Assembly (NCBI GenBank): GCA_963740755.1
Contig: CAVUFJ010000011.1
Coordinates: 80,822-144,821 of the forward strand
DNA: 64,000 bases
DNA from: Rhodothermales bacterium
GTDB lineage: Bacteria > Bacteroidota > Rhodothermia > Rhodothermales > BA12
Reading direction: 5' to 3'
The notes beneath the pieces were generated by a model, which saw nothing but the letters and a program-made list of their open reading frames with translations, was not told where the DNA came from and did not search any database. The translations under genes were made by a program, and so were the position numbers. Positions 6,942 through 59,745 of this stretch are shown piece by piece. Within the stretch, counting starts at the first letter, position 1, and every line of letters begins with the position of its first letter.

Positions 6942-7239
6942 CCGCCTGCGTCCCGGCGCGTAGGGCCCAAGCGGTGCAGCGCGGGCTTCGGCCCGAAACG
7001 CCCGCGGGTGCCGTTCAGAAGGGGAGGTTCTGGAAGCCGTCGGCGAGGAGGGTGCGCGGGCTCGGGTGGCCGTGGTGCTCGCGCAGCAGGGGGATGTGTT
7101 GTGCCGTCACCGCATCGGTCAGGCCCGGGGCGCGGGCAGAGTAGGCGCAGGCCCGGGGCGGAGTGGCTGTGCGCACGGAGCACTGCTCCACCGGCGGCCC
7201 GCTGCGCCCGGCAGGGCGCCAACCGCGCTGCCGAAGGCG

Positions 7240-13424: not shown

Positions 13425-13494
13425 CGTGGCCAGCCACACGTAAAGGCGAGGGCGAAGCTTCCGGGCTTCGCCCTCGTGCTGTTCTCGGGCCTGC

Positions 13495-14484
13495 CTACGC
13501 CGCGCCGGCGGTCTCGAACACGCCCATCGCGTCGAACTTGGCGAGGCGGGCAGCCAGGAGGTCGTCGGTGGGAAGGGGTGCCAGGGTGTCGAGGGCGCGG
13601 GCGATGGCGGCGCCGACGGTCTCGAAGGTCGCGGCGGGGTCGTGGTGGGCGCCGCCGAGGGGTTCGGGCAGGATCTCGTCGATCACGCCGACCTCCCTGA
13701 GGTCGGGGGCGGTGAGCTTGAGCGCGCGCGCGGCCTGCTCCTTGTAGTCCCAGGAGCGCCACAGAATGGACGAGCACGACTCGGGCGCGATGACCGAGTA
13801 CCAGGCGTTCTCCAGCATCAGGATGCGGTCGCCCACGCCGATGCCGAGCGCGCCGCCGCTGGCCCCCTCGCCGATCACGACGACGACGATGGGCACGGGG
13901 AGGCGGGCCATCACCATCAGGTTGTGGGCGATGGCCTCGGCCTGCCCGCGCTCTTCGGCTTCGAGGCCGGGGTAGGCGCCGGGCGTGTCGAGCAGGCACA
14001 CGACGGGCTTGCCAAAGCGGGCGGCCATCTCCATGAGGCGCCCCGCCTTGCGGTAGCCCTCCGGGTTGGGCATCCCGAAGCGGCGCAGCTTGCGCGTCTT
14101 CGTGTCGCGCCCCTTCTGGTGGCCGATGAGCATCACCGTGCGGTCCTGGCTGCCCCAGCGGCTGCCCTGGAACGTGCCGAGCCCGCCGATCATGGCCGGG
14201 TCATCGGCAAAGGCGCGGTCGCCGTGAAGCTCGGTGAACCCGTCGAGCAGCGCGCCCGCATAGTCGAGCGTGTAGGGGCGCTGCGGGTGGCGGGCGATCT
14301 GGACGCGCTGCCAGCGCGTGAGGCTGCCGTAGACCTGCGTGCGGAGCTGCTGCACGCGGGTTTCGAGCGCGCGCACCTCGGCGGCGTCGGGGCCGAGGAG
14401 GGCGCGGATCTCTTCGAGGCGCTGCTCGAGTTCGGCAATCGGCTTCTCGAAGTCCAGGAGCGGCGGTGAAGCGGGACGGGCCAT
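13495..14484 (-). CDS. accA: Acetyl-CoA carboxylase carboxyltransferase alpha subunit
   Basis: 329 aa, intact. Conserved AccA block [55 protein letters not shown]. Confidence 0.9.
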
Positions 14485-14618
14485 GCGGGCGCAGGGTGAG
14501 CGGGCGGAAAGGTAGGAAGGGATGGGCGACGTGCGACGTGCGGCGTACGACCTTCGATGTTCGCCCGTCGCCTGTCGCCCTGTCGCCCGTCGCCCGTCGC
14601 CTGTCGCGCCGTCGCACG

Positions 14619-16440
14619 TCACACGACCCGCTCGGCGTCTACGAGCCCGAGTTCGTCCACCGAGGCCTTGCCGATCACGCGGGCGCCGTCGGGGGCGAGC
14701 ATCCGGCATTCGATGGGCAGGTCGGCGAGGGTTTGCACGAGCGCGAAGGCGGTGCTCGCCGGGAGGGTGGTGGCCGAGAACAGCACGTCGGAGGCGCCCT
14801 CGAAGCGCACGAGGTCGCGCAGGGCCCGCACCGGCCCGAGGTGGGGCACCGGCGGCGTCCGGCGCGGGCGGCGGTCGTGGACATAGCCGGCGAGCACGAA
14901 CGGCGGGCGGGCCTGGGCGCGCAGCCGCTCGGCAAGGCGCCCGGCCTCTTCGGGCGTGCCGACCACGATGGCGCGGCGCGGGCGGACGCCGCTGCCGGAG
15001 CGCGAGGCGGTGGGCGCCGAGGAGCAGGCCGGTCAGGAGCGTGCCGCCCAGCACGAGCACGCGCGAGAACGCCACCGCCTTGACGAAGAACGAGAGCGTG
15101 GCCACGCCCACGAGCCCGGCGAGTGTGCCGGTGAGCACGGGCTGCCACCGCGCCCGTCCGCCCGGCCGGTAGCCCCCCCCGAGTGCCAGCCCCAGCACAA
15201 CGGCGAGGGTGAACGCCACGCCCACCGTCCCGAAAAAGCGCCCGCCGAGGGCCACGGGGCTGTCGCCCACGCGGAGCACCGCGGCGAGCGTGAGGCCGAT
15301 CAGGGCCAGCATCGCGTCGAAGGCGGGCGCGCGGAGGCGCTGCGAGGCCTGCCCGGTGGCGCTCACGAACGCCCGCCCCAGAATCGCCGCCCGCAGGCCG
15401 CCCACGAGCAGCGCTCCGCCGCGGTTGCCGCTGAAGTGCTTTTCGGCAAAGCGCAGCATGGCCCCGTAGAAAAGGCGCACGTAGCGCAGTTCGCCCTTCT
15501 TCGTGCTCTCGCCCTTGTAATGCACGATCCGCGTGTCCGGCGTGTAGTGCATCGTGTAGCCCGCCCGCTGGAGCCGGAAGCACAGGTCGAGGTCTTCGCC
15601 ATACATGAAGAAGGCCTCGTCGAAAAAGTCCACGGAATGCGCAGATCGGGGCTCAGGCGGCGCTGCGGCGAGGCCTTCGTCTGGGCGCGGCTCATGGCCG
15701 GTTTCCTGCGCTCCGTGTTCGGCAATCCGCCATAGGGCCGCGCGGCGCACCATCATGCAGGCGCCCGAGAGCGCGTCTACCTCGGTGGGCGTGTCCGGGT
15801 GGAGGTAGGTGAGGTTGTAGCGCCCGAAGCGCGGCGAGCGCGGAAAGAGCGTCGAGAGGCCGGACATCCGGTAGAACGCCACCTCGGGCGTCGGAAACGC
15901 GCGGCGGCTCTCGGGGGCAAACGTGCCGTCCGGGTTGAGCAGCATCGGGCCCACCGCGCCCGCCCCGGGGTGGGCATCGAGAAAGGCGGCGAGCGTGCGC
16001 AGCGTGCCTTCCTCCAGGATCGTGTCCGGGTTGAGGATGAGCACGTGCCGCCCGCGCGCCCGCCGAAGAGCCTGGTTGTTGGCCCGGCTGAAGCCCACGT
16101 TGTCCGCGTTGGCGATCAGGTGGACGTGGGGAGAGTGCGCGCGCACCGCCTCGGGCGTGCCGTCGACGGAGGCATTGTCCACCACGAACGTTTCGACGCG
16201 CAGGCCCTCGCTCGCCCGGTCGACGCTCGCGAGCGCCTGCTCCAGAAACGCCCGCACGTTGTACGACACGATCACGACCGACACGTCGGGCGCGTCGGCG
16301 TCAGGGCTGTCGGCAGGGCCGGGGGCGCGTTCAGGGGCAGGCGTCACGCGCGGAAGATACCAGACACGGGCGCCGCGCTTACCGGCGCACGGCGGTGAGC
16401 TGCGCCGCGACGGCCCGCCAGCGCCCCTCCAGCCATGCAT
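14619..16440 (-). CDS. Family 2 glycosyltransferase fused to a multi-TM region and a C-terminal WbaP-type CoA-binding-like regulatory domain; one frameshift; start codon uncertain
   Basis: GT2 N-terminus [13 protein letters not shown]...DNASVDGT...ILNPDT. Hydrophobic segments. C-terminal [31 protein letters not shown]...[26 protein letters not shown]. Frame break at about 14970 in a GC run. Confidence 0.6.
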
Positions 16441-16834
16441 ACGTGTTCGTAAAACGCACGTCCCGGTTGGCCTCGTGGATCACCCCGACCGACACGGCTG
16501 TGGCGCCGTAGCACCGCACGTCAACCATGCCGAGCCGGAACGGGGCGCCGGGGGCGAGCGGCTCGGCGGCCAGGATATCGGCGCGCTTCTCGGCCCTGGT
16601 GAGCACGCCCCCGTTGCTATGCGTGATCGTGAAGCCCTCGGCTACGATCCGGTCGTAGGCCGTCATGTCGTGGTCGCGGTAGGGCTGGACGAGCCACGCC
16701 TCGTCGAGCGGCGCGATGCGCGCGTGCGAGCAGGCCGGCACCGCGCGCTCCGGCGTGCGCGATCCGACCGAGATCGCACAGCCGCTCGCAGCCACGAGCA
16801 CCAGCAAAAGCGCGCTCAGGGGTGCAGGCTGCAT
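16379..16834 (-). CDS. Lipoprotein with an NTF2/SnoaL-like (DUF4440-type) fold
   Basis: [19 protein letters not shown] lipobox. ...[25 protein letters not shown]...[18 protein letters not shown]. Confidence 0.45.
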
Positions 16835-18801: not shown

Positions 18802-19993
18802 ATGGCCTACCTCTTCACCTCGGAGTCGGTCTCCGAAGGGCACCCCGACAAGGTCGCCGACCAGATCTCCGACGCCATCCTCGACGCGCTGCTCACGCAG
18901 GACCCGAAAAGCCGCGTGGCGGTCGAGACGCTCGTGACGACGGGCCTCGTGGTGCTCTCGGGCGAGGTGACGACGAATGCCTATGTGGACGTGCAGGAGA
19001 TCGCCCGCGGCGTGATCCGGGAGATCGGCTACACCGACCCCCGCCTCCGCTTCGATGCCGATTCGTGCGGCGTCATCTCGGCCATCCACGGCCAGAGCCC
19101 GGACATCGCGCAGGGCGTCGATGAAGGCGCCGGCCTGCACGAGGAGCAGGGCGCCGGCGACCAGGGCATGATGTTCGGCTACGCGACGACCGAGACGGCC
19201 GAGTTCATGCCGCTCGCGCTCAGCCTCTCGCACAAGCTCGTGCACGAGCTCGCCAAGATCCGCAAGTGGGAGCCGCACCTGATGCCCTACCTCCGCCCGG
19301 ACGCCAAGAGCCAGGTGACGATCGAGTACGACGACGACCGCCGCACCGTGCGCCGCGTCCACACCGTCGTGCTCTCGACGCAGCACGACGACGAGGTGAC
19401 GCTCGAGAAGATCAAGAAGGACGTGATCAAGCACCTGCTCCCGCGCGTGCTCCCGCAGAGCCTCGTGGACGACAACCTGATCCTCCACGTCAACCCGACG
19501 GGCAAGTTCGTCATCGGCGGCCCCCACGGCGACACCGGCCTGACGGGCCGCAAGATCATCGTGGACACCTACGGCGGCAAGGGCGCCCACGGCGGCGGCG
19601 CGTTCTCGGGCAAGGACCCGAGCAAGGTGGACCGCAGCGCCGCCTACGCGGCCCGCTACGTGGCGAAGAACCTCGTGGCGGCGGGCCTCGGCCGAGGAAG
19701 CGCTCGTGCAGGTGGCCTACGCCATCGGCGTGGCCGAGCCGGTGAGCGTGAACGTGAACACCTACGGCACCGGCACGCTCTCCGACGAGGCGCTCGGCGA
19801 ACTCATCCGCGCCGAGTTCGACCTGCGCCCGGCGGCCATCACGCGCACGCTCGACCTGCTCAAGCCGCGCTACCGCCACACGGCCGCCTACGGGCACTTC
19901 GGGCGCGACGGCGAGACGTTCACCTGGGAGCAGCTCGACCGCGTGGAGAGCCTCAAGGACCGCGCCGCCAAGTACAAGGAGCAGGCCGCGTAA
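18802..19993 (+). CDS. metK: S-adenosylmethionine synthetase with one frameshift
   Basis: [24 protein letters not shown]..., [41 protein letters not shown] single extra G at about 19691 joins frames 18802-19690 and 19706-19993. Confidence 0.9.
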
Positions 19994-20011
19994 CCCGCGC
20001 ACCTTCCGGCT

Positions 20012-20050
20012 TCGGGCCGCCTCGCTTTGTGCGGGGCGGCCTTTTTTGTG
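20012..20050 (+). terminator. Rho-independent terminator after metK
   Basis: GGGCCGCCTCGCTTTGTGCGGGGCGGCC followed by TTTTTTGTG. Confidence 0.6.
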
Positions 20051-20179
20051 GGTCTGGGCGCGGCGCGCGGCCCAAACAGGCGAAAGCGGGGGCGTGCGGG
20101 CGCCCGGCATCGCGCGCCGTGGTTGATGGCGGCGGGCGCAAGGGCTAAGTTGCCGCCGTCCATTTGCGCCGTCTTTCCG

Positions 20180-22735
20180 ATGCCCCTTCGCCCAGTTCGT
20201 TGCCCCGCTGCTTGCCGGGGCCCTCGTGCTCGCTGCCTGCACGTCGAGCCGTTCCACCCCGGCTTCCCCGCCGTCCGCCACGCCGCCCAGTGCGGCCGCC
20301 ACAGCTCCCCCGGCCGCAGGGGCCACGCCCCCGGCGGCCGGCACGCCCGCGCGACCGGCAGCGGCTCCGACGGGGCCGAAGCCGTTTGCGGAGACCGTGC
20401 GCGGGATGCGCGCCGACAGCGGACTCGTGACGGTGTACCGCAACGACACCAAGCTGCTCTTCGCGGTCGCCGACACGCTCTTCGGGCGCGACTTGCTCTG
20501 GCTCACGCGCGTGTCCGCCGTGCCCGCCGGGCTGGGCGGCTTCGTGACGCCGGGCGTCAACCTGAACGAGAGCGTCGTGCGCTTCGAGCGGCGCGGCGAC
20601 CGCGTGCTGCTGCGCGAAGTTCAGCTACGACCAGGTGGCCGCCGATTCCCTGCCCGATTGCGCGCGCCGTGGCGCGGGGCCAACTTCGCGCCCGTGCTCG
20701 CCTCGCTGCCCGTGCAGAGCTACGCGCCCGATTCGAGCGTGGTGCTCGACGTGACGGCGCTCTTCGAGAAGGACACCCCCGCCTTTGCCGGGCTCACGGC
20801 CACGCAGCGCACCACCTACCAGGTGCGGCGCCTAGACGAGTCGCGCAGCTTCATCAACACGGCGCGGAGCTACCCGCTCAACGTGGAGGTCAACCACACG
20901 CTCACCTACGACGCCGGGCGCCCGCCGTCCGACGTCGATGCCGGCACGATCTCGATGGAGCTGCAGCAGTCGCTCGTGCTGCTGCCGAAAACGCCCATGC
21001 GGCCCGCGCATCGCGGACGAGCGCGTGGGCTACTTCACCGTCGATCAGATCAACTTCGGCGCCGCCGATCAGCAGGCCGTGCGGCAGCAGTTCATCCGCC
21101 GGTGGCGCCTGGAGCCCAAAGACCCGGCGGCCTACGCCCGGCGCGAACTGACAGAGCCCGTCAAGCCCATCGTCTACTACCTCGACCCGGCCACGCCCGC
21201 CGAGTGGCGCTCGTGCGTGATGCAGGGCGTGAACGACTGGCAGAAGCCGTTCGAAACCGCGGGCTTCAAAAACGCCATCGAGGCGCGCTTGCCCCCCACC
21301 GACGACCCCGACTGGAGCGCCGACGACGTGCGCTACTCGACCGTCCGCTGGGCGGCGAGCCTGACGCGCAACGCGATGGGCCCGAGCGTGAGCGACCCGC
21401 GCACGGGCGAGATCATCGAGTCCGACATCGTGTGGTACCACAACCACCTTCGCTCCTACCGCAACCGGATCATGCTGGAGACGGGCGCCGCCAACCCGCT
21501 CGCCCGCACCCTCCCCATCGACACCGGGGCTCATGTGCGAGGCGATGCGGCAGGTGATTGCCCACGAGATCGGCCACGCGCTCGGCTTTCCGCACAACAT
21601 GGGCGCGAGCAGCGCCTACCCGGTCGACTCGCTCCGTAACCCGTCGTTCGTGCGGCGGATGGGCGTGGCGCCGTCCGTGATGGACTATGCGCGCCAGAAC
21701 TACGTGGCCCAGCCCGGCGACGGCCTTGTGGGCACCGACTTTCTGCGCCAGATCGGGCCGTACGACCACTACGCCGTCAACTGGGGCTACCGCGTGATTC
21801 CCGTCTGCCGCGACGCCCGAGGCCGAGAAGCCGATCCTCCACCACTGGATCCTCGCGCACGCGGGCGACCCGGTGTACCGCTTCAACGGCGGCGGGGGCT
21901 TCGACCCGAGCGCGCAGACCGAGGACATCGGCAGCGACCCGGTGGCCGCGAGCACGCTCGGCATCGCCAACCTGAAGCGCGTGGCGCCGCAGCCTGCTCG
22001 CGTGGACGACGAAGCCGGGCGAGGACTACACGAACCTGACCGAGCTCTACGGCGAACTCGTGGGCCAGTGGCAGCGCTACGTCGGGCACGTGCTCACGCT
22101 CGTGGGCGGGCGTCGTAGAGACGCACAAGACGTCCGATGAAACCGGCAACGTGTACACGCCCGTGCCGGCCGCGCAGCAGCGGGCGGCGATGGCGTTCGC
22201 TGGCGCGCGAGGTGTTCGAGGCGCCCACGTGGCTCACCGACGATGCCGTGCTGGGCCGCATCGAAGCCACCGGCGGGCTCGACCGGATCACCGGCGCGCA
22301 GGCGAACGTGGTGAACAGCCTGCTCTCCACCGCCCGCCTCCAGCGCCTCGCCGACGCCGCGGTCCGTGATGGATTTGCGTATTCCCCCACGAGCTTCTTC
22401 GACGACCTCCGCGCGGGCGTCTGGGGCCGCGGCGCGCCCGACGTGTACCGCCGCGCCGCTCCAGCGCGCCTACGTGGAGCGCCTGACCACGCTCCTCAAC
22501 CCGCCGGACGCGCCCGCCACGGCCTCCCCGATCCCCGGCGCCCCGAGCCCCGCCGCGCAGCAGGCCGCCGTGCTCCGCTCCGACATCCAGCCGCTCGTGC
22601 GCGCCGAACTCGCAGACGCTCCAGCGACGAGCGCCCGCGCCGCCGCCCGCGCCACAAGCGACCGGCTCGTGCGCGCCCACTACGAAGACCTCGCCACAGC
22701 GCGCCGCCCGCGCCCTCGACCCGAACGCGTGATTG
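20180..22735 (+). CDS. Large secreted zinc metalloprotease lipoprotein (metzincin-type HEIGHALGFPH motif), heavily frameshifted; its 3' end abuts the low-GC island
   Basis: Reconstructed start MPFAQFVAPLLAGALVLAAC after removing one extra C at 20184. HEIGHALGFPHNMGASSAYPVDSL...VMDYARQNY. Homology runs through at least seven frames up to about 22735. Confidence 0.7.
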
Positions 22736-24568
22736 CTTCATCACGTCATCTTGTATCGCCTAACCATCTAGAAACATGGATGTAGTAACACAGAGCCTGC
22801 TTGGCGAATTTACTTCAAGCCAGAAGCTTGAAAATCTGGCCCAGTCTGATCAATTTGAGGCGTTTGTAAACTACATCGTTATATCAGACCTATACCCTGA
22901 AGAATTTGATTACAGTGTTGTGTCTACAGGCACGGGTGAGTTTGGTATTGATGGCATAGCAATAATCGTCAATGATTCAATCATAGATATGGCGAGGATC
23001 AGATGGATGATATTATATCGAATGTTCCTGTCATTCAGGCCCATTTTGTGTTTGTTCAGTCGAAAACAAGTGCATCTTTCGATGTTGGAGACATGTCTAA
23101 GTTTTTGTAGGCAGTAGTTGATTTTTTCAAGCAGGAAATATCTTTTAGCCAAACGACAAGATATTGGAGCTCCAGAGGGTCAAGAACAAGCTTTTTAAGA
23201 GCGCATCTAAGTTTGCCAGGGGGCTTCCTAAGATATCTCTATACTACGCCACTACTGGCACATGGAATGATGACCAAAATCTTTGTGCGACTAGAGATTT
23301 ATTTGTCGGTCAACTAAACAACCTTCACATATTTGAGTCGGTTAAGTTTTATCCGCTTGGGGCTAGCAAGGTGCAAAAGCTGTATTTTCAGACAAAGAAT
23401 GCATTCAGGGTGTCGATAAACTTTGCCCAGAATCTTTCACTGCCTGAAATACCTGGGGTCAGAGAGTCGTACATCGGACTCTGCCTGTATCTGAATACAT
23501 GAAAATGATTACAGATGAAGCAGGGAACGTAAGAAGAAGGCTATTTTTTGACAATATTAGGGATTTTCAGGGCGAAACCTCTGTAAATAAATCAATTAAG
23601 GAAACGCTTGTTTCACCAAACAGTATTGAGTTTCCACTGAGGAATAACGGTATTACCATAGTAGCACGCAAGCTCCAGAGGGTTGGGTCTCAGTTTACGT
23701 TAGAGGATTATCAAGTTGTAAATGGTTGTCAAACCAGTCATGTCATAGCGTCCACGGGAAAGAAAGATGATCATGATACCATGATACCCATAAAGATTAT
23801 ATCTACAGAAGACGAGGAGATCACAAGACAGGTGATAATTGCTTCTAACCAACAAAATAAGGTAGATCAGGAGAGTTTTTGGACCCTCGCTCCCATTCAT
23901 AAGTCAATTGAGGTATATTTTGATTCAAAGCCTGGCGACCACAAGCTGCATTACGAGAGGAGGCCAGGTCAATTCAATACATTGAACGGCATAGAAAAGG
24001 TTAGAATAGTTACCAAGGACTCACTATTGAAGGTTTATGCATCTGTATTTCTCGAGCAACCTAACCAGGTTGGTAGGTATTATAAAGACCTAACACCGCT
24101 TATTGGTAAAGAAATATTCTCCCCAGATCACGAGGTGAATTCGTATTATACAGCTGCTATACATAGCTTATAGACTGGAGTTTATGTTTCGCAATAAAAA
24201 AATGGATCCTGAATGGAAGCCTTTTAGATTCCAAATTATGATGGCAACTCGCCTCTTGATAGAGAAGGATTTGAAATTAGAACCTAAAAAAAGAGGTCAA
24301 AGCAATATTGTGCCGCAATAGATGCCGTAATGGTTGGACCCAGAGAAAGCACAAGCCGTTTTTGAGCGAGCAACAAGCTTGATCTCAAAGGCTATATCTC
24401 TGCTTAAGGATCAGGATGCTAAGCTTGACCGACGGACCGCTAAAATGCGAGACATGAGAGACAAACTCAGAGACGTTATATCTAAACAAGACACGCGATG
24501 ATTTTGTGTGTATCAACTAAGTGAATTCTTCACATTTATGCCAATATTGTCCCTCAGACGACGCTAGA
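22732..24568. mobile_element. Horizontally acquired low-GC island (~1.84 kb, roughly 35-40% GC by eye) carrying an abortive-infection gene; no integrase or transposase
   Basis: Abrupt composition change at both ends. Flanked by the metzincin 3' end on the left and a displaced DUF445 3' fragment on the right. Confidence 0.7.
22776..24173 (+). CDS. AIPR-family abortive infection (phage resistance) protein in three frameshifted pieces; it may continue in two further small ORFs to about 24490
   Basis: N-terminus FEAFVNYIVISDLYPEEFDY...GEFGIDGIAIIVND. AIPR-core motifs FFDNIRDFQG...NNGITIVA and QVVNGCQTSHVI. Pieces 22776-23117, 23164-23502 and 23499-24173. Confidence 0.6.
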
Positions 24569-24578
24569 ATCCGAGCGT

Positions 24579-24745
24579 TCACCCGAGCCAGGTGGTCAGC
24601 AGATAGAGGAGCGCGCCGACGAGACCGCCCACCAGCGTGCCGTTGATGCGGATCCACTGCGGACCTTGCCGACGGCGACTTCGATGCGGTCAGGCGACGG
24701 CCTCGGCGGGCCAGTGCTCGATCGTGTCGCGCATGCCCCTGCACG
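24579..24745 (-). pseudogene. Displaced, diverged fragment of a DUF445 gene 3' end (~85% identical to 25438-25610); it keeps the native stop codon
   Basis: Minus-strand translation ...[38 protein letters not shown] against ...[42 protein letters not shown] in the intact gene. Confidence 0.55.
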
Positions 24746-24821
24746 TAGCTCCAGTGTGTCCGGAACTCTCTCCGCCCCGAATTAACGTCGATGAGGCCTC
24801 CGTTTTACACATCCCGGATCG

Positions 24822-25035
24822 ATGCCTGCCGTTTTCGCGTATCGCCCAAATTTCAGGTCGTCATCCCTCGCCGCGTGCGGGAGGCGCTCCGCATCGAGCC
24901 TGGTCAGCAGGTCGAGGTCATCGCGCACGGCGACCGCATCGAACTCATCCCGGTGCGCCCCATCCAGCAGATGCGCGGTTTTCTGACGGGGCTAGACACC
25001 CTGAATTGGGCGGGAGCAAGACCAGGGCGCTATGA
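24822..25035 (+). CDS. vapB: AbrB/SpoVT-type antitoxin (VapB-like), frameshifted near its start
   Basis: VSPKFQVVIPRRVREALRIEPGQQVEVIAHGDRIELIPV swapped-hairpin motif. ATGA overlap with the next gene at 25032. Confidence 0.6.
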
Positions 25036-25460
25036 ACGTCGTCGATTCCTCCGGATGGCTCGAATACTTCGCCGGGAGCGCCCGGGCGGACTTTTTCGCC
25101 CCTGCCATTGAGGACACGGCAGCGCTCGTTGTGCCGGTGGATCACGCTTTATGAGGTGTACAAGCGCGTACGCCAGCAGCGCAGTGAGATTGAAGACGTT
25201 TACAGGCGGTCGGGGAAATGCAGCAAGGCCGTCTTGTCGATCTCGATAGGAGCCTCGCCCTACGGGCCGCCCAACTGAGTCTCGCGCATCGCCTCCCCAT
25301 GGCGGACAGCCTGATCTTGGCGACGGCGCGGGCCCTGGAGGCAGAACTCTGGACCCAAAACGCTCACTTCGAGGGACTCGCCGGGGACGATATCAGCGTA
25401 AAGCGTGAGCCGCAAGCTCGCGCGGACGCCGTGCAGCCGAGCCAGGTGGTGAGCAGGTAG
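25032..25460 (+). CDS. vapC: PIN-domain toxin (VapC-like) with two frameshifts; its 3' end overlaps the DUF445 gene convergently
   Basis: [35 protein letters not shown]...YEVYKRV...[49 protein letters not shown]. Confidence 0.65.
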
Positions 25461-30442: not shown

Positions 30443-31138
30443 TCAGCGCTCTGGGAGGGTGCCGGTGGCGAGGAACGCGCGCACGAGCCGCTGCACCCGC
30501 GGCTGGAGCATCAGGAACGTGTGGCGGCCCGGCACGAGCACGAACGCGGCACCGTCGAGGCGGGCTTCCTCGGGGCGCACCTTGCCGTCGCGCGTGCCGG
30601 CGATGACCGCCATCTCGACGCCGGTGGGCACGGGCAGCGTGCGCACGGTGCTGCCGGTCGTGCGAAGCTCGCGGAGGGGCTTGAGGAGCCAGCCCGCGTA
30701 GGGCGCGAGCCGGTCGGCCTTGGCGGCGCCCTGGTTGGGCGGGGCGAGCATCACCACCCGCCCGAGGCGCGCGGGGCGGTCGTGCGCAAGCAGGTACCGC
30801 ACCACGATGCCGCCGAGGCTGTGCGTGACGAAGTGGACGCGCGGGGCAGCCTCTTCGGCGAGCGCCCGGTCTACCGCCCGGCCCACCTGCGCGCTGATCT
30901 CTGCGATGCTTGGTCCGTAGGAACTGTAGCCGACGTTGCGCACCCGGTAGCCGTCGCGCTCCAGCATCCGTTGCAGCGGCAGCATCGACAGGGACGTGCG
31001 GCCCATCCCATGCACGAGCACGACAAGGTCGCGCGGCGGCGTGGTCACGCGCGGGCGGGCGGACGTGGGGGCGAGGTGCGCGCAGCCCAGCGCGCCCAGG
31101 AGGAGCAAACCCGGCAGAAGCGCAGCGGAAACGTGCAT
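30443..31138 (-). CDS. Secreted alpha/beta hydrolase, lipase-like
   Basis: MHVSAALLPGLLLLGALGC. HGMGRT...VHFVTHSLGG (G-x-S-x-G nucleophile elbow). Confidence 0.65.
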   Translation of the reverse strand: MHVSAALLPGLLLLGALGCAHLAPTSARPRVTTPPRDLVVLVHGMGRTSLSMLPLQRMLERDGYRVRNVGYSSYGPSIAEISAQVGRAVDRALAEEAAPRVHFVTHSLGGIVVRYLLAHDRPARLGRVVMLAPPNQGAAKADRLAPYAGWLLKPLRELRTTGSTVRTLPVPTGVEMAVIAGTRDGKVRPEEARLDGAAFVLVPGRHTFLMLQPRVQRLVRAFLATGTLPER

Positions 31139-31166
31139 CACCAGAGGAGGCCGGGGCGTGGGCGCG

Positions 31167-31373
31167 TAGGGGCAAAGCATCCGCTGTGCGGCCACCGGCC
31201 TCCGCAGCGCTCCGCTCATGGCAACGGTGCCGCGCAATGCCCCGCCCGGATGCTTCGCCCGCACCGCCCGGCATGGTGGGCAAAGCATCGGGGTGGGGCC
31301 ACGGGCAGAGGCGTTGCCGCAGGTGGGGGCGGGGCCGCGGGCAGGGGCTTCACAGCGGATGCTTTGCCCCTAC
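31167..31373. repeat. GC-rich nested-palindrome element, copy 1. The outer inverted repeat is GTAGGGGCAAAGCATCCGCTGTG paired with CACAGCGGATGCTTTGCCCCTAC.
   Basis: Direct reading. The related copy is at 52140-52350. Confidence 0.75.
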
Positions 31374-31392
31374 GGATGGCGTCTTGGGGCGC

Positions 31393-32632
<1,240 letters not shown>

Positions 32633-39777: not shown

Positions 39778-40075
39778 TGGAAGGGCGTGGCTGCGCCTGA
39801 CGAGAAACGCCGTCCCTCCGGGTGGTCGGCCGGAGCGCCGGACGGGATCGCCGTCAAGGTGGCGCCTGTGCTGTCGGCGGTAGAGAGCGCGACTTGTCGT
39901 GCCCTCCTCATGAGGGACGCCCTGCGACCGAAGGGCGCGATGCATCGCGCCCCTACGGAGGATGCGCCCGAGGGCGGCCTACTGCCTATGAGGAGGACGG
40001 GGACGGGTGAAGATCGGAGGGCGGGAGAACGGGGGCGGGCCGCGTACCTTTTCGGCGCTGTCCCCCTCCGCTGCT

Positions 40076-41728
40076 TTGAGCCGTCTCCGCAAGCTCGCCT
40101 CCGACACGGCCGTCTACGGGCTCTCGTCCATCCTCGGGCGGATGCTCAACTTCCTGCTCGTGCCGTTCTACACGCAGGTGTTCACGCGCGAGGAGGTGGG
40201 CGTGATCACGCTCGTGTTTCTGGCCTTCGTCTTCCTGAACATCCTGTTCACGTACGGGCTGGAGTCGGCCTACCTCAAGTACGCCTCGGGCCAGGAGGGG
40301 CGCGCGCGCGTCGTGGAGGTGTTCTCGACGGCCACGTTCTCGCTCCTCGCCACGAGCGCCGTGCTCGGGCTCGGGATCGTGCTCTTTCCCGGCGTGCTGC
40401 AAGGCCTGTTCGGCTTCGGCGCAGGCGCGCCGTACCTCGTGGCCGTCGTCGCGCTCACGCTCGTGCTCGACACGCTCACCAAGGTGCCGCTCGCCGAACT
40501 CCGCCTCGCCGGGCGCCCGTGGATGTTCGCGGTGGCCAACTTCGCCAACATCGGGGCCAACATCCTGCTCACGCTCGTGCTCGTGCTCAAGTACAAGCGC
40601 GGCGTGGCGGGCGTGTTCGAGGCCAACCTGATGGGGAGCGTGGCGCAGCTCGCCGTGCTCGCGCCGCTCTACGTGCAACTGCTGCGCCCGCGCTTTCACC
40701 GGGCCATCTGGCGCGACCTCGTGGCCTTTGGCCTGCCGTTCGTGCCGGGCGGCGTGGGCTACGCGCTCACCGACCGCGTGAGCACCATTGGCCTGCAAAA
40801 GCTGCCCTCGGCCGTGCCCGGCGCCTCCGGCGAGGCGCTCGTGGGCCTCTACGGCGCGGCGCCCAAGCTGGGCGTGTTCATGATGCTCGCCGTGCAGATG
40901 TTCAGGTTCGCCTGGCAGCCCTTCTTCCTCCAGCACGCCGACGACGCCGACGCGCGCCCGCTCTTTGCGCGCGTGTTCACGCTCTTCAACGCGGGCCTGT
41001 GGGCGTTCTTCCTCGGCGTGGCCTTCTACGCCCGCGAGATCGCCACGCTGCCGCTGCCGGGCGGGCGGACGCTTATCCAGGCGTCGTTTCTGCCGGGGCT
41101 CGTGGCGGTGCCGCTCGTGCTCGGCTCGTACCTGCTCCAGGGCTGGTACTACGCCTTCTCGGCGGGCCTCTACATCGAGAAGCAGACCAAGTATTTCGTC
41201 CACGCCACCGTCGCGGGGGCGGTGGCGGCCATCGTCGCCACGGTGCTGCTCGTGCCCCGGCTCGGACTCGTGGGCGCGGGCGCGGCGAGTGTGGCGGGCT
41301 ACGGGGCGATGGCCCTCGCGCTCTACGTGTACGCACAGCGGGCCTACCCGCTCCCGTTCAACTGGCGCCGCGCCGGGGGCACCGCCGCGCTCGCGCTCGC
41401 GCTCTTTGGCGCGTGGGCGCTCGTGCCGGTGCTCCAGCGCTGGTTCATCGAAGGGTTGCTCCTGGCGGCCTACGGAGCGGGCCTCGTGGCGCTCGGCGTG
41501 GTGCCGCGCGGACTGCTCACGCGGATCGGGCGGCGCCCGGCGCGTCCGCAGGCGCCGCCCGAGGAGCCCGGCGAGAGCGCCCGCACCGGCGCGCAGCTGG
41601 CCGACCTCGCCGCCGACCCGGCCGCGCTCGCCGACAACACCGACGCGCCGGACGCCTCGGCGCCCTCGCCGCCGCCCGCCTCCACCCCCTCGGAGGCGCC
41701 CGGCCCGGCGCCCTCCGAGCCGTCGTGA
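40076..41728 (+). CDS. Wzx-like oligosaccharide/lipid flippase (polysaccharide biosynthesis protein family); TTG start inferred
   Basis: About 12-14 TMs. N-terminal LRKLASDTAVYGLSSILGRMLNFLLVPFYT, typical of Wzx/MOP flippases. Confidence 0.7.
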   Translation: MSRLRKLASDTAVYGLSSILGRMLNFLLVPFYTQVFTREEVGVITLVFLAFVFLNILFTYGLESAYLKYASGQEGRARVVEVFSTATFSLLATSAVLGLGIVLFPGVLQGLFGFGAGAPYLVAVVALTLVLDTLTKVPLAELRLAGRPWMFAVANFANIGANILLTLVLVLKYKRGVAGVFEANLMGSVAQLAVLAPLYVQLLRPRFHRAIWRDLVAFGLPFVPGGVGYALTDRVSTIGLQKLPSAVPGASGEALVGLYGAAPKLGVFMMLAVQMFRFAWQPFFLQHADDADARPLFARVFTLFNAGLWAFFLGVAFYAREIATLPLPGGRTLIQASFLPGLVAVPLVLGSYLLQGWYYAFSAGLYIEKQTKYFVHATVAGAVAAIVATVLLVPRLGLVGAGAASVAGYGAMALALYVYAQRAYPLPFNWRRAGGTAALALALFGAWALVPVLQRWFIEGLLLAAYGAGLVALGVVPRGLLTRIGRRPARPQAPPEEPGESARTGAQLADLAADPAALADNTDAPDASAPSPPPASTPSEAPGPAPSEPS

Positions 41729-42781
41729 CGCCCCCGCCCACGCCCACCGCTTCGCCCGCGCCGGGCTTTGCGCCGCGCGCCGGGCGCGTGCTCGTGACGG
41801 GCGCGACGGGCTTTCTCGGCGGCGCCCTCGCCCGCGCCCTCCACGCCCGCGGGCGCGCCGTCACCGCGACAGGCCGGGATGCCCGCGCCGGCGCCGCACT
41901 GGAGGCCGAGGGCATCCCCTTCGCCCGCCTCGACCTCGGCGACGCCGATGCGGTGCATCGCCTCGTGGAGGGCCACGCCGCCGTGATCCACAGCGCCGCC
42001 CTCGCCGCGCCGTATGGGCGGGCCGCCGATTTCTGGCGCGCCAACGTGCAGGCCACCGCCCATGTGCTCGGCGCGTGCCAGGCCGCCGGCGTGCAGCGCC
42101 TCGTCCACCTCTCGACGCCCTCCGTCTACTTCGGCTTCGAGAGCCGCGAAGACGTCCGCGAGTCCGACGAACTGCCCGCCCTGCCGCGCACCCCCTACGC
42201 CGCCTCGAAGCGCCTCGCCGACGTGCTCGTGCGCGCGGCCGTAGCCGAGGGCCTGAGCGCGATCCTGCTGCGCCCGCGCGCGATCTATGGCCCCGGCGAC
42301 CGGGCGGTGCTGCCGCGCCTGATCCGCGCGCTGCGCACGGGCCGCCTGCCCATCATCGGCGACGGGCACAACCGCGTGAGCATGACCTACATCGACCACG
42401 CCGTAGACGCCGCAATCCGCGCGCTCGACGCCCCGGACGCCCTCTCGGGCCGCATCTACAACGTGGCCGATGGCGAGCCTGTAGCGCTGTGGGCGATGAT
42501 CGCGGCGCTCTGCGACCGGCTGGGCCTGCCGCGCCCCACGCGCCACGTTTCGCTCGCGCGGATGATGCGCGTCGGCGGCGTGCTCGAAGCCGGTGTACCG
42601 CCGCCTGCTCCCGGGCCGCGAGCCCGTGCTGACGCGCTACAGCGTGGCCGTGGTGGGCTGCTCGCAGACGCTCGACACCACCGCGCTCCGCCGCGACCTC
42701 GGCTTCCGCCCGTGGGTGACGCCGGAAGAGGGGCTAGCGCGCTTTGCCGCGTGGTGGCAGGCGCAGGAGGCGACGCCGTGA
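41725..42781 (+). CDS. NAD-dependent epimerase/dehydratase (3-beta-HSD-like SDR) with one frameshift
   Basis: VLVTGATGFLGGALARAL Rossmann motif. YAASK catalytic pair. GTG start overlaps the flippase stop. Frame break at about 42595. Confidence 0.75.
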
Positions 42782-43596
42782 GCGGCTGGCGCCTCGCGTG
42801 GCTCGAAGCCGGCGCGTGCCGGGCGCCCGAGCGCCTCTCGCGCGGCGATGGCCGCTGGCGGACGCACCGCTTTCCGGCGGGCGTGGGCCTGCTCGAAGGG
42901 CACGGGCGGATCGTCCTCTTCGACACCGGCTACGCCCCGCGCTACCGCCCCGTGATGCAGTGCACGCTCCCGCACCGGCTCCTCACGCGCGCCCTCGCGC
43001 CCGTCGTGACGCCCTCGGCGGCAGACCTGCTCGCCGCCCGGGGGATCGCGCCCGAGGCCGTCACCGACGTGTTCGTGTCGCACTTCCACACCGACCATGT
43101 GGGCGGCCTGCGCGACTTTCCGCACGCCCGCTTTCACGCCCACCCGGAGGCGCTGCGTCCCGTGCGCGCCCCGCACGGCGTGGACGAACGCGGCGGGCTA
43201 CGCCGCCGCCTTCCTGCCGGACGACTTCGACGCGCGCTTCACGCCCCTCCGGCACCGCGTGGCGCTCCCGCCCGTGCTCGCCCCGTTCGCCGAGGGCTAC
43301 CGCGTGTTCGGCGACGAGCACCACGCTCGCGCTCGACCTCCCCGGCCACGCGCCGGGCCAGGTGGGCCTCTACGTGGAGACGGACGCGGGCCCGTGGCTT
43401 CTCGCCGCCGACGCCGCCTGGCACATCGACGCGCTCGTGGACGATAAGGGCCGCGCCCTCGGCGCTCGGGATGCGCCTCCAGCACGACGCCCGCGCCTAC
43501 CGCGCCACCCAGCACGCCCTGCGCACGGTGATCGCCCGCCACCCCGGCCTCACCGTGGCGGTGAGCCACGACGCCCCCCGCCGGTTCGGCCCGTAG
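42778..43596 (+). CDS. MBL-fold metallo-hydrolase with about three frameshifts
   Basis: VSHFHTDHVGGL (HxHxDH). ...LDLPGHAPGQVGLYVETDAGPWLLAADAAWHIDAL. Start overlaps the epimerase stop. Confidence 0.6.
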   Translation: MSGWRLAWLEAGACRAPERLSRGDGRWRTHRFPAGVGLLEGHGRIVLFDTGYAPRYRPVMQCTLPHRLLTRALAPVVTPSAADLLAARGIAPEAVTDVFVSHFHTDHVGGLRDFPHARFHAHPEALRPVRAPHGVDERGGLRRRLPAGRLRRALHAPPAPRGAPARARPVRRGLPRVRRRAPRSRSTSPATRRARWASTWRRTRARGFSPPTPPGTSTRSWTIRAAPSALGMRLQHDARAYRATQHALRTVIARHPGLTVAVSHDAPRRFGP

Positions 43597-43644
43597 GGGC
43601 CCCATGAATGGGGCCCTTCCATCGAGTCGCACGGCGACGCGGGA

Positions 43645-50440: not shown

Positions 50441-51996
50441 TCACAGCCCCGCCGTTTCGCCGAAGTCGACTTCCTGCGGGATTTCGGTGCGGTCGAGATT
50501 GGGCAGGTACCAGGCGATGAGCGTGAGCAGCGCCGCGAAGCCCACGAGGCCCCAGAACACCGTCTGCAGGCTCACCGCGAGGCCGTCGTGCAGGGCGGCG
50601 AGGGCCGCCGGGGGCAGCGCCGGACCACTCGTGTGGGCGCCTTCGCCGATGAGGTCGCGCAGGCGGTCGATGGGCACCGTCTCTCCGAGGCCGCGCGCGG
50701 CGAGGTAGGCGTGCAGGCGCACGTTGAGGAGCCCGCCGAAGAGGGCGGCGCCGACCGTACTGCCCAGCAGGCGCATCAGGATGTTGGAGGCCGTCGCCGC
50801 GCCGCGCTGCCGCCAGCCCACGCTCGTCTGGATGGCGACCATGAACGTGGTGCTGCAGAAGCCGAGCCCGAAGCCCACGAGGAACGAGCCAGCCGCCGCG
50901 TAGAGCGCCCCGTGCGGCGCGCCGAGCGCCACCACGAGCGTGCCCGCCAGGAGCGAGAGCCCGCCCACGCGCGCCGTCAGGCGGGCGCCGAGCGTGAGCA
51001 GGAGTCGTCCGGCGATGAACGCCGAGATGGGCCAGCCGAGCGTCATGCCGGTGAGGCTGAAGCCCGCCGCGAGCGCCGAACTGCCCAGCACGCCCTGCAC
51101 GTAGGTGGGCAAGAACGAGATCAGCCCGATCATCACCCCGCCCGCGAGAAACGTGGCCGTGTTGCCGATGCGGATCAGGCGGGTTCTGCCACAGCTCCAG
51201 GTGCATGAGCGGGTCGTCCACGCGCCGCTCGTGGCGCAGAAACCAGACGAGCGCGACGACGAACACCGCCAGCAGCGCCGCCGCCGCCGTCCAGCCCCAG
51301 ACGGTGCTCTGCGTGAGCGCGAGCATGAAGGCCGACACGCCGACGAAGAGCAGCGTCGCCCCGCCGTAGTCGATCTGCCGGGCGTGCACCTCGACGCGCT
51401 CGTGGAGAAACCGCCACGCCAGAAAGCCCGCGATGAGGCCGAAGGGCACGTTGATCCAGAACACCCAGTGCCAGTCGGCGTGGGCCACGATGAGGCCGCC
51501 CGCGAGCGGCCCGAGGATGGACGAGAGGCCCCACACGCTGCCGAGCACGCCCTGCACGCGCGGGCGCTCCTCGAGCGTGTAGAGGTCGCCCACGAGGATC
51601 ATCGTGAGCGGCTGCACCGCCCCCGCACCGATGCCCTGCACGAGCCGGAAGAGCACGAGCAGGCCCATCGTCGGGCGCAAAGCCGCACAGCACGGAGCCG
51701 ACGAGGAAGATGCCGAGCCCGACGAGGAAGACGGGCTTGCGCCCGAACATGTCGGCGAGCTTGCCGAAGACGGGCGTCATCGTGCCCTGCATGAGCAGGT
51801 ACGACGAGAACACCCACGCGTAGAGCCCGAACCCGCCGATCTTCGCCGCGATGTTGGGCATGGCCGTGGCCACGATCGTCGCCTCGATGGACGACATGAA
51901 CGAGGCCATCACGAGCGCCGTGAGCACGAGCGTGCGGTGGGTCGTGGGCAGGCCGGCAGGCGTGGCCGTAGGGGCCGCCAGGGTAGCAGTAGACAT
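50441..51996 (-). CDS. MFS transporter, DHA2 (EmrB-like, 14-TM) family; two frameshifts
   Basis: ...MSSIEATIVATAMPNIAAKIGG...FGKLADMFGRKPVFL...LFRLVQGIGAGAVQP.... Frame breaks at about 51690 and 51190. Confidence 0.75.
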
Positions 51997-52139
51997 CAGG
52001 CGCAGGTAGAGGCCCCTCCCGAACCCGGTGGTAGCACACCGTTTCCGGGTGACAGGCCGGTATCCCTCGCGTCTACACACGCCGGTCACACGTCCGTTGC
52101 ACCCGCCCCCGTTATCGCCCGCCCCCATCGTCGCGCGTA

Positions 52140-52350
52140 GGGGCGAAGCCTCCGCTGTGCGGCGCCTGCCCGTCGTGCGGCTCCCTGCGCCGCAACGGCA
52201 CGCGCGTTGTCCCGGTGCGAGGCTTCGCCCAACTCCTGCCACCGGGGGCGATGCGGGCGAAGCCTCGCGCCAGGACCATGGGCAGGGCCGTTGCCGCGTC
52301 GGGCGGCGGGGCCGCGCGCGGAGGCGGCACAGCGGAGGCTTCGCCCCTAC
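52140..52350. repeat. GC-rich nested-palindrome element, copy 2. Outer inverted repeat GTAGGGGCGAAGCCTCCGCTGTG paired with CACAGCGGAGGCTTCGCCCCTAC. Inner pairs cgaggcttcgccc / gggcgaagcctcg and gcaacggc / gccgttgc.
   Basis: Direct reading. Same architecture as 31167-31373, with compensated base differences. Confidence 0.75.
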
Positions 52351-52400
52351 GCGGTCGGCGGTACGGCGGTGGTATGTTGGGGCGGATGCCATCCCTGCCC

Positions 52401-55444
<3,044 letters not shown>

Positions 55445-58107: not shown

Positions 58108-58212
58108 TGGATCATGCATCATCGCCAGAAGACCGCTCCGGGCATCTCTGACCATGATCGGGGATCAACCCGATGATCTCCCATGATGCGACCGGAGTTG
58201 GGATGACCCCTA
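58108..58212. repeat. R4 copy of the GGTCAGAGA / GATC-rich repeat family, inverse orientation
   Basis: gatcatgcatcatcgccagaagaccgctccgggcatctctgaccatgatcggggatcaacccgatgatctcccatgatgcgaccggagttgggatga. Confidence 0.7.
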
Positions 58213-59373: not shown

Positions 59374-59454
59374 AGGAGCCGGGGCGTATCCAAAGATAAC
59401 TGGCGCTACCCACGAAAAAGCCGCCCCGGTGCAGAACCGCGTCGCGCGACGAGC

Positions 59455-59745
59455 CGGACGCCTTCCCCACCCCCTTTGCCAACGTGCCCGGCTACGTGGA
59501 TGCCGACGACGGTAGGGGCGGGGTTAACCACGCCCTACCGCATCCTGGTGCTGCCGGGCGACTTCGGGCACGACAAGGCCCTCGCACGCGTGGCCGGGGT
59601 GTCGCGCGTGGCGCGCCTCTACGACGCCCCCGCGCCCCACTGCGCCGAGGTGCTCCTCGCCACGGGCGCCGCGTGCCTCCCCGGTGGCCGCGCGTGTCGT
59701 GCTCGATAACGCCAACACCCCGGCCGATCTGTTCGGAAGCGCTTT
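59455..59745 (+). pseudogene. Decayed partial duplicate of the 57390-58072 segment (3' end of the hypothetical gene plus an internally deleted mobA)
   Basis: AFPTPFANVPGYVDADD then ...LVLPGDFGHDKALARVAGVSRVARLYDAPAPHCAEVLLATGA...NANTPADL, parallel to mobA's GGHSRRFGRDKALAEVDGVPLVARVYDALAPHCAEVLIATGA...NANTSEDL. Confidence 0.55.

Follow-up and report, generated by a model that had tools for sequence, protein, structure and literature searches.

Two nested palindromes of a Rhodothermales bacterium are best read as large-loop variants of a GTAG-tagged repetitive extragenic palindrome doublet

The DNA considered here is a stretch of 64,000 nucleotides (hereafter, the window) from contig CAVUFJ010000011.1 of a Rhodothermales bacterium (assembly GCA_963740755.1; organism G+C of about 71%), and its subject is a pair of long, GC-rich nested palindromes located between genes. 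The first of them (copy 1) lies between two genes of the - strand, encoding a Band 7/SPFH flotillin-like protein and an alpha/beta-hydrolase (30443-31138, -), 18 nt past the stop codon of the former (31393-31395) and 26 nt ahead of the ATG of the latter. The second (copy 2) separates the divergent genes of an MFS transporter, whose ATG is 137 nt away, and of an FdhA-like molybdopterin oxidoreductase, whose first in-frame ATG is 32 nt away. The original prediction, made from the DNA letters alone, had placed two elements at these positions and had named the flanking genes correctly (hydrolase/lipase, flotillin, MFS, FdhA). It had also described both locations as promoter-proximal, which does not simply apply to copy 1, found after a stop codon between genes of the same strand. 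As predicted, the open reading frames (ORFs) called inside the elements, stop-free peptides on both strands, are artefacts of the palindrome.

Each copy is composed of two half-units of 96-98 nt that are mutual reverse complements, and the whole doublet measures 208-220 nt (Table 1). The ends are formed by a 23-nt terminus, GTAGGGGC[A/G]AAGC[A/C]TCCGCTGTG, of which the window has exactly four occurrences, arranged in two perfect inverted pairs (0.00 expected in 100 shuffles, with three mismatches permitted). Each copy contains a 12-nt word, GGGC[A/G]AAGC[A/C]TC, four times, in alternating orientation beginning with forward, in agreement with the earlier description. The third inverted pair of that description exists in both copies, but it is imperfect. 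Read from 5' to 3', a half-unit has the structure CGTAG-GGGCNAAGCNTC-CGCTGTG-(~33 nt)-GCAACG-(~22 nt)-GANGCTTNGCCC, in which GCAACG is invariant across all four half-units. Word 1 pairs with word 2, and word 3 with word 4, in a stem of 12-14 bp based on GGGC/GCCC; the arms of this stem are separated by a loop of 63-68 nt. Pairing is complete in copy 2 (12/12) and between words 3 and 4 of copy 1 (12/12), and reaches 13/14 between words 1 and 2 of copy 1. GTAG directly precedes GGGC at all four termini, and in 6/6 half-unit folds this tetranucleotide stayed unpaired at the word stem's foot. Neither a further copy nor a comparable long inverted repeat was detected elsewhere in the 64-kb window, and inspection of the sequence revealed no direct repeat flanking copy 1 or copy 2 that could represent a target-site duplication.

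Table 1. Coordinates of the long elements, their parts and the short GTAG hairpins (REP, repetitive extragenic palindrome). Positions are those of the window unless a locus (L) is named.
Feature	Position	Strand	Description
Copy 1	31165..31374	.	210-nt nested palindrome; half-units 31165-31262 and 31277-31374; 17-nt centre
Copy 1, left terminus	31166..31188	+	GTAGGGGCAAAGCATCCGCTGTG; GTAG tag, GGGC foot and word 1 (31170-31181)
Copy 1, word 2	31249..31260	-	GGGCGAAGCATC on the - strand; the only word without the A variant of copy 1
Copy 1, word 3	31278..31289	+	GGGCAAAGCATC; word 2 is its central-stem partner
Copy 1, right terminus	31351..31373	-	Identical 23-mer to the left one; contains word 4 (31358-31369)
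Copy 1, third pair	31220..31227	+	GGCAACGG; partner GCGTTGCC at 31311-31318
Copy 2	52134..52353	.	220-nt nested palindrome; half-units 52136-52232 and 52254-52351; 24-nt centre
Copy 2, left terminus	52137..52159	+	GTAGGGGCGAAGCCTCCGCTGTG; contains word 1 (52141-52152)
Copy 2, word 2	52219..52230	-	GGGCGAAGCCTC on the - strand
Copy 2, word 3	52255..52266	+	GGGCGAAGCCTC
Copy 2, right terminus	52328..52350	-	Identical 23-mer to the left one; contains word 4 (52335-52346)
Copy 2, third pair	52191..52199	+	CGCAACGGC; partner GCCGTTGCC at 52287-52295
Short REP 'a'	39933..39956	-	GTAG + GGGCGCGATGCATCGCGCCC; 20-nt hairpin body; intergenic, canonical
Short REP 'b'	43593..43616	+	GTAG + GGGCCCCATGAATGGGGCCC; canonical, intergenic; TAG ends an open frame
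Short REP 'c'	59512..59538	.	GTAGGGGCGGGGTTAACCACGCCCTAC; 'double-foot' (GTAG...CTAC), one stem mismatch; intergenic, 10 nt upstream of gene 58210-59502
In-gene hairpin, L045	7757-7784		In frame; these hairpins encode e.g. GRGTMHRAPT
In-gene hairpin, L090	3535-3562		In frame
In-gene hairpin, L118	1852-1879		In frame
In-gene hairpin, L147	6247-6274		In frame

Comparison of the two copies showed where they are free to vary. In the outer arms, both base differences between the copies (A/G and A/C) are mirrored exactly on the opposite arm, as had been pointed out. The further statement that all four words of a copy carry the variant of that copy is true of copy 2 (4/4), but in copy 1 it is true of three words only, word 2 being GGGCGAAGCATC and not GGGCAAAGCATC, so that words 2 and 3 are mismatched, as A.C when the + strand is folded and as G.T for the - strand. 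When the copies were aligned on the long-hairpin structure described below, eight base pairs were altered on both sides, versus one with the partners slid; this count comes from two sequences and from a structure derived from both, and is supportive while statistically weak. The four half-units are 69-78% identical to each other in a star-like pattern, with 72-78% identity between the arms of one copy and 69-77% between arms of different copies. Their alignment contains 55 invariant columns (the first 24 positions bar two, GCAACG and the inner word), six copy-specific columns (three within words, the other three bordering the inner word), four side-specific columns, three columns supporting the third partition (ABBA) and 28 uncompensated columns, all of which fall in the arm interior. 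Pairing is being maintained, as the original prediction proposed: changes on both sides have kept the termini, the words and the central stem complementary. With only two copies in the window, and with star-like half-units sharing 69-78% identity, the copies are old and not a recently expanding population.

Conversion within the element had been offered as another source of the mirrored changes. Neutral homogenisation, by template switching or gene conversion between the arms of a quasi-palindrome and with no sequence-specific function attached, would account for the words that carry their own copy's variant, a pattern that needs either concerted change or parallel substitutions. It should, however, affect whole arms, and the two arms of one copy resemble each other no more than they resemble those of the other copy; copy-specific columns are also barely more numerous than the side-specific and ABBA columns. 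Moreover, the four half-units are identical at 22 of the 24 terminal positions, in the words and in GCAACG, and the 23-mer is kept in an unrelated organism of 59% GC (locus L009, see below). Termini, words, central stem and GCAACG that stay constant or paired beside a drifting interior argue for a constraint on specific parts and against a general arm-to-arm homogenisation. Whole-arm conversion was not seen, neutral homogenisation is contradicted by the uncompensated interior, and we regard it as an improbable account of the elements. The word variant shared within a copy can be explained by selection on both foldings (unit hairpin and doublet hairpin), by descent from different master copies, or by template switching of a local kind.

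Folding of the complete elements gave, for either strand of either copy, one long imperfect hairpin of about 100 bp as the minimum-energy structure, with energies of -145 to -183 kcal/mol and z-scores of -7.0 to -10.5 (0/200 shuffles as stable). Folds of this strength, together with the eight two-sided pair changes, could be the signature of a structured RNA whose stems are selected as RNA, either a small RNA or a cis-regulatory leader or attenuator; the latter would concern copy 2, which ends 32 nt ahead of the FdhA-like ATG. RNA parameters also favour the + strand over the - strand by 7-10 kcal/mol in both copies. Being a DNA palindrome, the element nevertheless folds almost as well on one strand as on the other, and the contexts of the copies differ, the neighbours of copy 1 being encoded on the - strand, which has the less stable fold. 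No Rfam family (Rfam 15) reached its gathering score in the window, and the sub-threshold matches were to generic eukaryotic miRNA-hairpin models only, at 20-28 bits against cut-offs of 69-200 bits. Neither a terminator-like hairpin followed by a T run nor a sigma-70-like promoter was found; terminator-like sites were absent from both strands of 30900-31600 and 51800-52600, though alternative pairings exist. The 28 uncompensated interior columns are a further difficulty for this explanation, and the head and the word of the elements belong to a repeat family defined at the DNA level, presented in the following paragraphs. As for the word order that had been likened to an attenuator, it is simply the geometry of two inverted hairpin units. 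Nothing specific speaks for a structured RNA, which is unlikely and to which we assign a very small probability.

The head of the elements pointed to a class of repeats already described. In GTAG-tagged repetitive extragenic palindromes (REPs), a hairpin with a fully paired basal stem of 7-20 nt has the tetranucleotide GT[AG]G 0-2 nt 5' of its foot (PMC3733652; PMC6006769). Within the GTAG REP superfamily, subfamilies are told apart by complementary residues of the stem, flanking ORFs use the TAG of GTAG as a stop codon, and there is no target-site duplication (PMC3733652). These REPs also form head-out HH dimers, with GTAG outside, spacers of 20-100 bp and possibly a single large stem-loop (PMC3733652). 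Inverted doublets of REPs that form hairpins are known as REPINs; their ends are invariant, their spacer is less conserved, and compensatory hairpin changes are common in them (PMC3116915). Finally, the 'double-foot' REPs associated with subclass 2.4 of the TnpA_REP transposases are tagged at both ends, on one side by GT[AG]G and on the opposite side by C[TC]AC (PMC6006769).

Short hairpins of this type are present in the window itself. The sequence GTAGGGGC, with which the long elements open, was found nine times in the window against 1.66 expected, and three canonical hairpins share this head with the long elements (REPs 'a', 'b' and 'c', Table 1). REPs 'a' and 'b' differ at three adjacent compensated base pairs and have in common their flanks (CC...TTC) and their loop (ATGNAT), and the TAG within the GTAG of REP 'b' closes a long open frame (39787..43596). 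The 24-mer of REP 'a' recurs identically in a viral contig of 49% GC (L032, 1697-1720). The elements had been announced as new, which is not supported: they carry the GTAG tag and the G:C foot of the GTAG REP superfamily and thus match a known class of element at the superfamily level. The gene that begins 10 nt from REP 'c' (58210-59502, -) encodes a plasmid pRiA4b ORF-3-like protein with PRiA4_ORF3 and DUF6398 domains. Two other hairpins of the window resemble parts of the family: at 13447-13476, just beyond the 3' end of a - strand gene (13495-16479), a perfect 10-bp hairpin CGAGGGCGAAGC-TTCCGG-GCTTCGCCCTCG with the word core GGGCGAAGC and without the GTAG tag, and at 6960-6995 a GTAG-headed imperfect hairpin, GTAGGGCCCAAGCGGTGCAGCGCGGGCTTCGGCCC, with a 12-nt loop and a word similar to GGGCNAAGC.

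We then considered relatives in other genomes. A metagenome scan with GTAGGGGCNNNGCNNCCGCTGTG returned 14 loci, of which 12 have no palindromic partner and only one, L009, is related. The remaining locus, L006, also has a double-foot GTAG hairpin, but the body of this hairpin is different and it was set aside as separate. L009, a metagenome contig from an organism of 59% G+C, carries the same 23-nt terminus as a minimal double-foot hairpin of 42 nt, GTAGGGGCGAAGCATCCGC-TGTG-GCGGATGCTTCGCCCCTAC, followed by a second GTAGGGGC hairpin. In L146, from a metagenome-assembled genome (MAG) of Chloroflexota, the same word encloses a loop of 27 nt, GTAG-GGGCGAAGCATTCGCGCG-[27 nt]-CGCGCGAGTGCTTGGCCC. No closer relative than these two was found in any collection searched. 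A covariance model of the half-unit gave 94-101 bits for the four half-units and 46 bits (E ~1e-6) for L009, and ordinary short REPs scored weakly, with the loop deleted. Among 160 fetched loci, an enlarged loop with the same word was seen only in L146; wherever else in these loci a stem word occurred a second time, the second occurrence was part of the other REP in an ordinary dimer. In viral contigs, scans with the terminus or the word pair gave chance or coding matches only, and a literature lookup by sequence strings of the element gave irrelevant matches only. The hydrolase next to copy 1 has top relatives of at most 65% identity, the nearest named ones being from Rubricoccaceae and other Rhodothermales-like MAGs; around its closest homologues (about 65% identity) there was no adjoining flotillin gene and no such repeats, synteny being absent at the lipase locus.

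The short hairpins, for their part, are widespread. Pilot scans of viral contigs, followed by one scan of species-representative genomes, were done with GTAGGGGCNNNATGNATNNNGCCC and returned nearly only perfect palindromes with covarying stems; the loci numbered 13 in viral contigs and at least 117 in genomes. Among the genome matches listed, Chloroflexota, Thermodesulfobacteriota, Bacillota, Gemmatimonadota, Cyanobacteria, Rhodothermales and many more groups are represented; the loci listed contain at least 268 GTAG-GGG hairpins counted by strand, at least 250 of them with a body of exactly 20 nt, and head-out inverted dimers of 60-80 nt are common. Hairpin-bearing genomes (L044-L160) span 35% to 76% G+C across many phyla, sometimes with an identical hairpin sequence. 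Several GTAG-GGGC hairpins with a 20-nt body were observed per predicted viral contig (L024, L028, L029, L032/L039, L038 and others), six each in L024 and L029. At one contig end of a Rhodothermales MAG (L063, 1-104), a single complete double-foot hairpin comes after several 16-nt partial copies (GTAGGGGCACGATGCC) in tandem, which may reflect slippage at a REP or an assembly artefact.

Perfect 23-bp terminal inverted repeats, a length of about 210 bp, an intergenic position and two diverged copies with uncompensated interior differences are also features of a decaying miniature transposable element with inverted repeats (MITE) derived from a DDE-type insertion sequence. Against such an origin, a target-site duplication is absent at both copies, and the termini open with the GTAG-GGGC head of REPs and recur in simple hairpins that are not elements with terminal inverted repeats (L009, L146). 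The word also recurs internally in both directions, which an element bounded by terminal inverted repeats would not need, and neither the window nor the plasmid collection yielded an insertion sequence with matching ends. Such an origin is unlikely, and its chances of being the right answer seem small.

In other genomes, the hairpins are also linked to a transposase. An all-versus-all comparison of ORFs in the 117 genome loci listed identified a recurrent protein in at least four of them (L045, L090, L118 and L147). Its best NCBIfam match was NF047646, REP-associated tyrosine transposase (RAYT), at 47-79 bits for a cut-off of 80, and its Pfam domain was Y1_Tnp. A hairpin lies inside the coding sequence in all four RAYT-like genes, and just after the HUH motif in three (Table 1). 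In TnpA_REP subclass 2.4, the base of the cognate REP stem consists of three G:C pairs, and in-frame REP insertions are found within the transposase gene (PMC6006769). The in-frame hairpins in the RAYT-like genes match this published feature and are thus already known (PMC6006769).

Taken with the architecture of the elements, these observations suggest that each of them probably consists of two GTAG-tagged REP units in inverted orientation, an arrangement described as a REPIN, a head-out HH dimer or a 'double-foot' element. The elements are best read as an unusual large-loop variant of the GTAG REP doublet and not as a new class. The TnpA_REP of Escherichia coli and the transposases of the IS200/IS605 family bind a hairpin on single-stranded DNA, use the tetranucleotide at its foot as a guide, and cleave and rejoin the DNA without target duplication. 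In the elements, a unit would comprise 5'-GTAG and the stem formed by words 1 and 2, with its large loop, and the second unit would be its reverse complement, 17-24 nt away. As single-stranded DNA (or RNA), the doublet could adopt either of two structures, a pair of separate hairpins or a single hairpin of about 100 bp; two inverted hairpin units would account for both the alternating order of the words and the two foldings. By analogy with the known systems, a REP-associated tyrosine (HUH/Y1) transposase would bind the hairpin, guided by the GTAG at its foot, and would cleave and rejoin single-stranded DNA, maintaining or spreading the element with no target duplication. Selection for recognition would preserve the tag, the stems and their pairing while loop and spacer drift, and we propose that the compensatory changes arise because such selection keeps the pairing. 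The 17-24-nt spacer, the GTAG-out orientation, the lack of target duplication, the pattern of conservation and the position of copy 1 just past a stop codon all fit a REP doublet. We infer, from the same analogy, that a cognate transposase encoded in the genome acts on both elements. A host role such as stabilisation of transcript ends or termination may be inferred as well, and roles like those of the bacterial interspersed mosaic elements (BIMEs), namely transcript-end protection and protein binding, would be compatible with a REP doublet.

Several points weigh against this interpretation. The half-units, at 96-98 nt with loops of 63-68 nt, are outside the ranges published for REPs, which measure 20-65 nt overall and have loops of mostly 2-5 nt and at most ~27 nt (PMC3733652; PMC6006769). 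By itself, the 23-nt terminus forms no hairpin. Only two long copies were seen, and judging from their divergence they are old and not part of a recently expanding population. A scan of the genome contig collection with TAGGGGCNAAGCNTCCGCTGTG gave 0 matches to the long element, blastn against the plasmid collection gave none, and none of 570 candidates was retained at E <= 10 when the stop-free peptides of the element were compared with predicted proteins. No RAYT-like gene was detected in the 64-kb window by tblastn with a single subclass-2.4-like query. In addition, the position of copy 2, between divergent genes, is the least common location of REPs (PMC3733652). The possibility that the terminus is a decayed 20-nt REP hairpin was considered and rejected: its pairing is poor and is not conserved from one terminus to the next, and L009 has the 23-mer intact.

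In a more novel reading, the four complementary words would be kept concerted because both conformations are functional, the single hairpin of ~100 bp as well as the two hairpins of 12-14 bp with a loop of ~65 nt each. The elements would then constitute a bistable DNA or RNA switch and not a relic REP doublet, either as a distinct giant-loop class of RAYT substrates with conserved loop motifs of its own (CCGCTGTG, GCAACG) or as a regulator domesticated by the neighbouring genes (the fdhA leader and the flotillin-lipase junction). We hold this to be quite unlikely.

The quality of the surrounding sequence also bears on the elements. The flotillin-like gene shifts reading frame near 31530, and other mid-gene frame changes affect the 3' end of metK (~19700-20148), a DUF5117 metalloprotease-like gene (20226-22760), the AIPR gene (22776-24173) and the MFS gene (50441-51996), which suggests assembly indel errors or pseudogenes. 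Single-base assembly errors are possible in a window with such frameshifted genes. An assembly artefact was rejected as the source of the palindromes, given two loci of one architecture with diverged interiors; two independent loci that share this architecture and have perfect termini indicate that the elements themselves are real. Apart from the elements, the window contains an island of low G+C (~22700-24700 and 24791-25111; 53-59% versus ~71% elsewhere) with a fragmented AIPR gene of abortive-infection type (Pfam PF10592, E = 4e-44; 23499-24173), followed by a gene for a MazE/AbrB-type antitoxin. This island with AIPR and antitoxin genes is probably acquired DNA.

If the doublet interpretation is right, the range of size and shape of REP and REPIN substrates would be extended to a loop of ~65 nt with tag, foot and stem pairing kept. 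Units of this kind would be missed by current REP finders, because these assume loops of 2-5 nt. One stem word associated with loops of 4 nt (L009), 27 nt (L146) and 63-68 nt (the window) would provide a test set for what a tyrosine HUH transposase reads. For annotation, it would account for spurious ORFs, N-terminal extensions and TAG stops near such sites. The present evidence raises no new biological question. Compensatory change, the most striking property of the elements, has been documented for REPINs already.

Among known systems, the BIMEs of E. coli resemble the elements in being extragenic mosaics of REPs in alternating orientation. BIMEs have roles in protein binding (IHF, gyrase, Pol I), mRNA stabilisation and termination. 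They are unlike the elements in that the REP sequences are different (GTAG-GCCGGATG...) and that BIMEs have defined linker motifs and a very high copy number. REPINs (Bertels & Rainey 2011, PMC3116915) likewise consist of two inverted REP units around a short spacer, the whole element forming one hairpin, and share with the present elements their invariant inverted ends, less conserved interior, compensatory arm changes, extragenic position and lack of target duplication. Known REPINs are, however, ~70-110 nt long with units of ~20-35 nt, whereas here units of ~97 nt make up a doublet of 208-220 nt. Their populations comprise tens to hundreds of near-identical copies beside a cognate RAYT, in contrast to the two copies of ~70-78% identity, with no RAYT seen, in the window (PMC3116915).

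Members of the GTAG REP superfamily and their HH dimers (Di Nocera et al. 2013, PMC3733652) have GTAG at one end of a GC-rich stem-loop, form HH dimers, provide TAG stops and, like copy 1, lie less than 20 bp from the 3' end of the upstream ORF. They differ in their published stems of 5-13 bp and loops of mostly 2-4 nt, the largest structured loops being of ~27 bp (Bradyrhizobium GTAG-14), and no described family has a distance of 66-68 nt between the stem arms. The REPs of TnpA_REP subclass 2.4/RAYT group 4 (Quentin et al. 2018, PMC6006769) have the GT[AG]G guide and three consecutive G:C pairs at the base of the stem, include forms that have both a 5' GTAG and a 3' CTAC, are known from Bacteroidetes, Cyanobacteria and scattered phyla, and are found as in-frame copies in the transposase gene, as in L045, L090, L118 and L147 here. 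The double-foot REPs of this subclass are single hairpins, similar to L009 and REP 'c', whereas the 210-nt elements are double-footed and contain, in addition, two further internal stem words and long, poorly paired segments.

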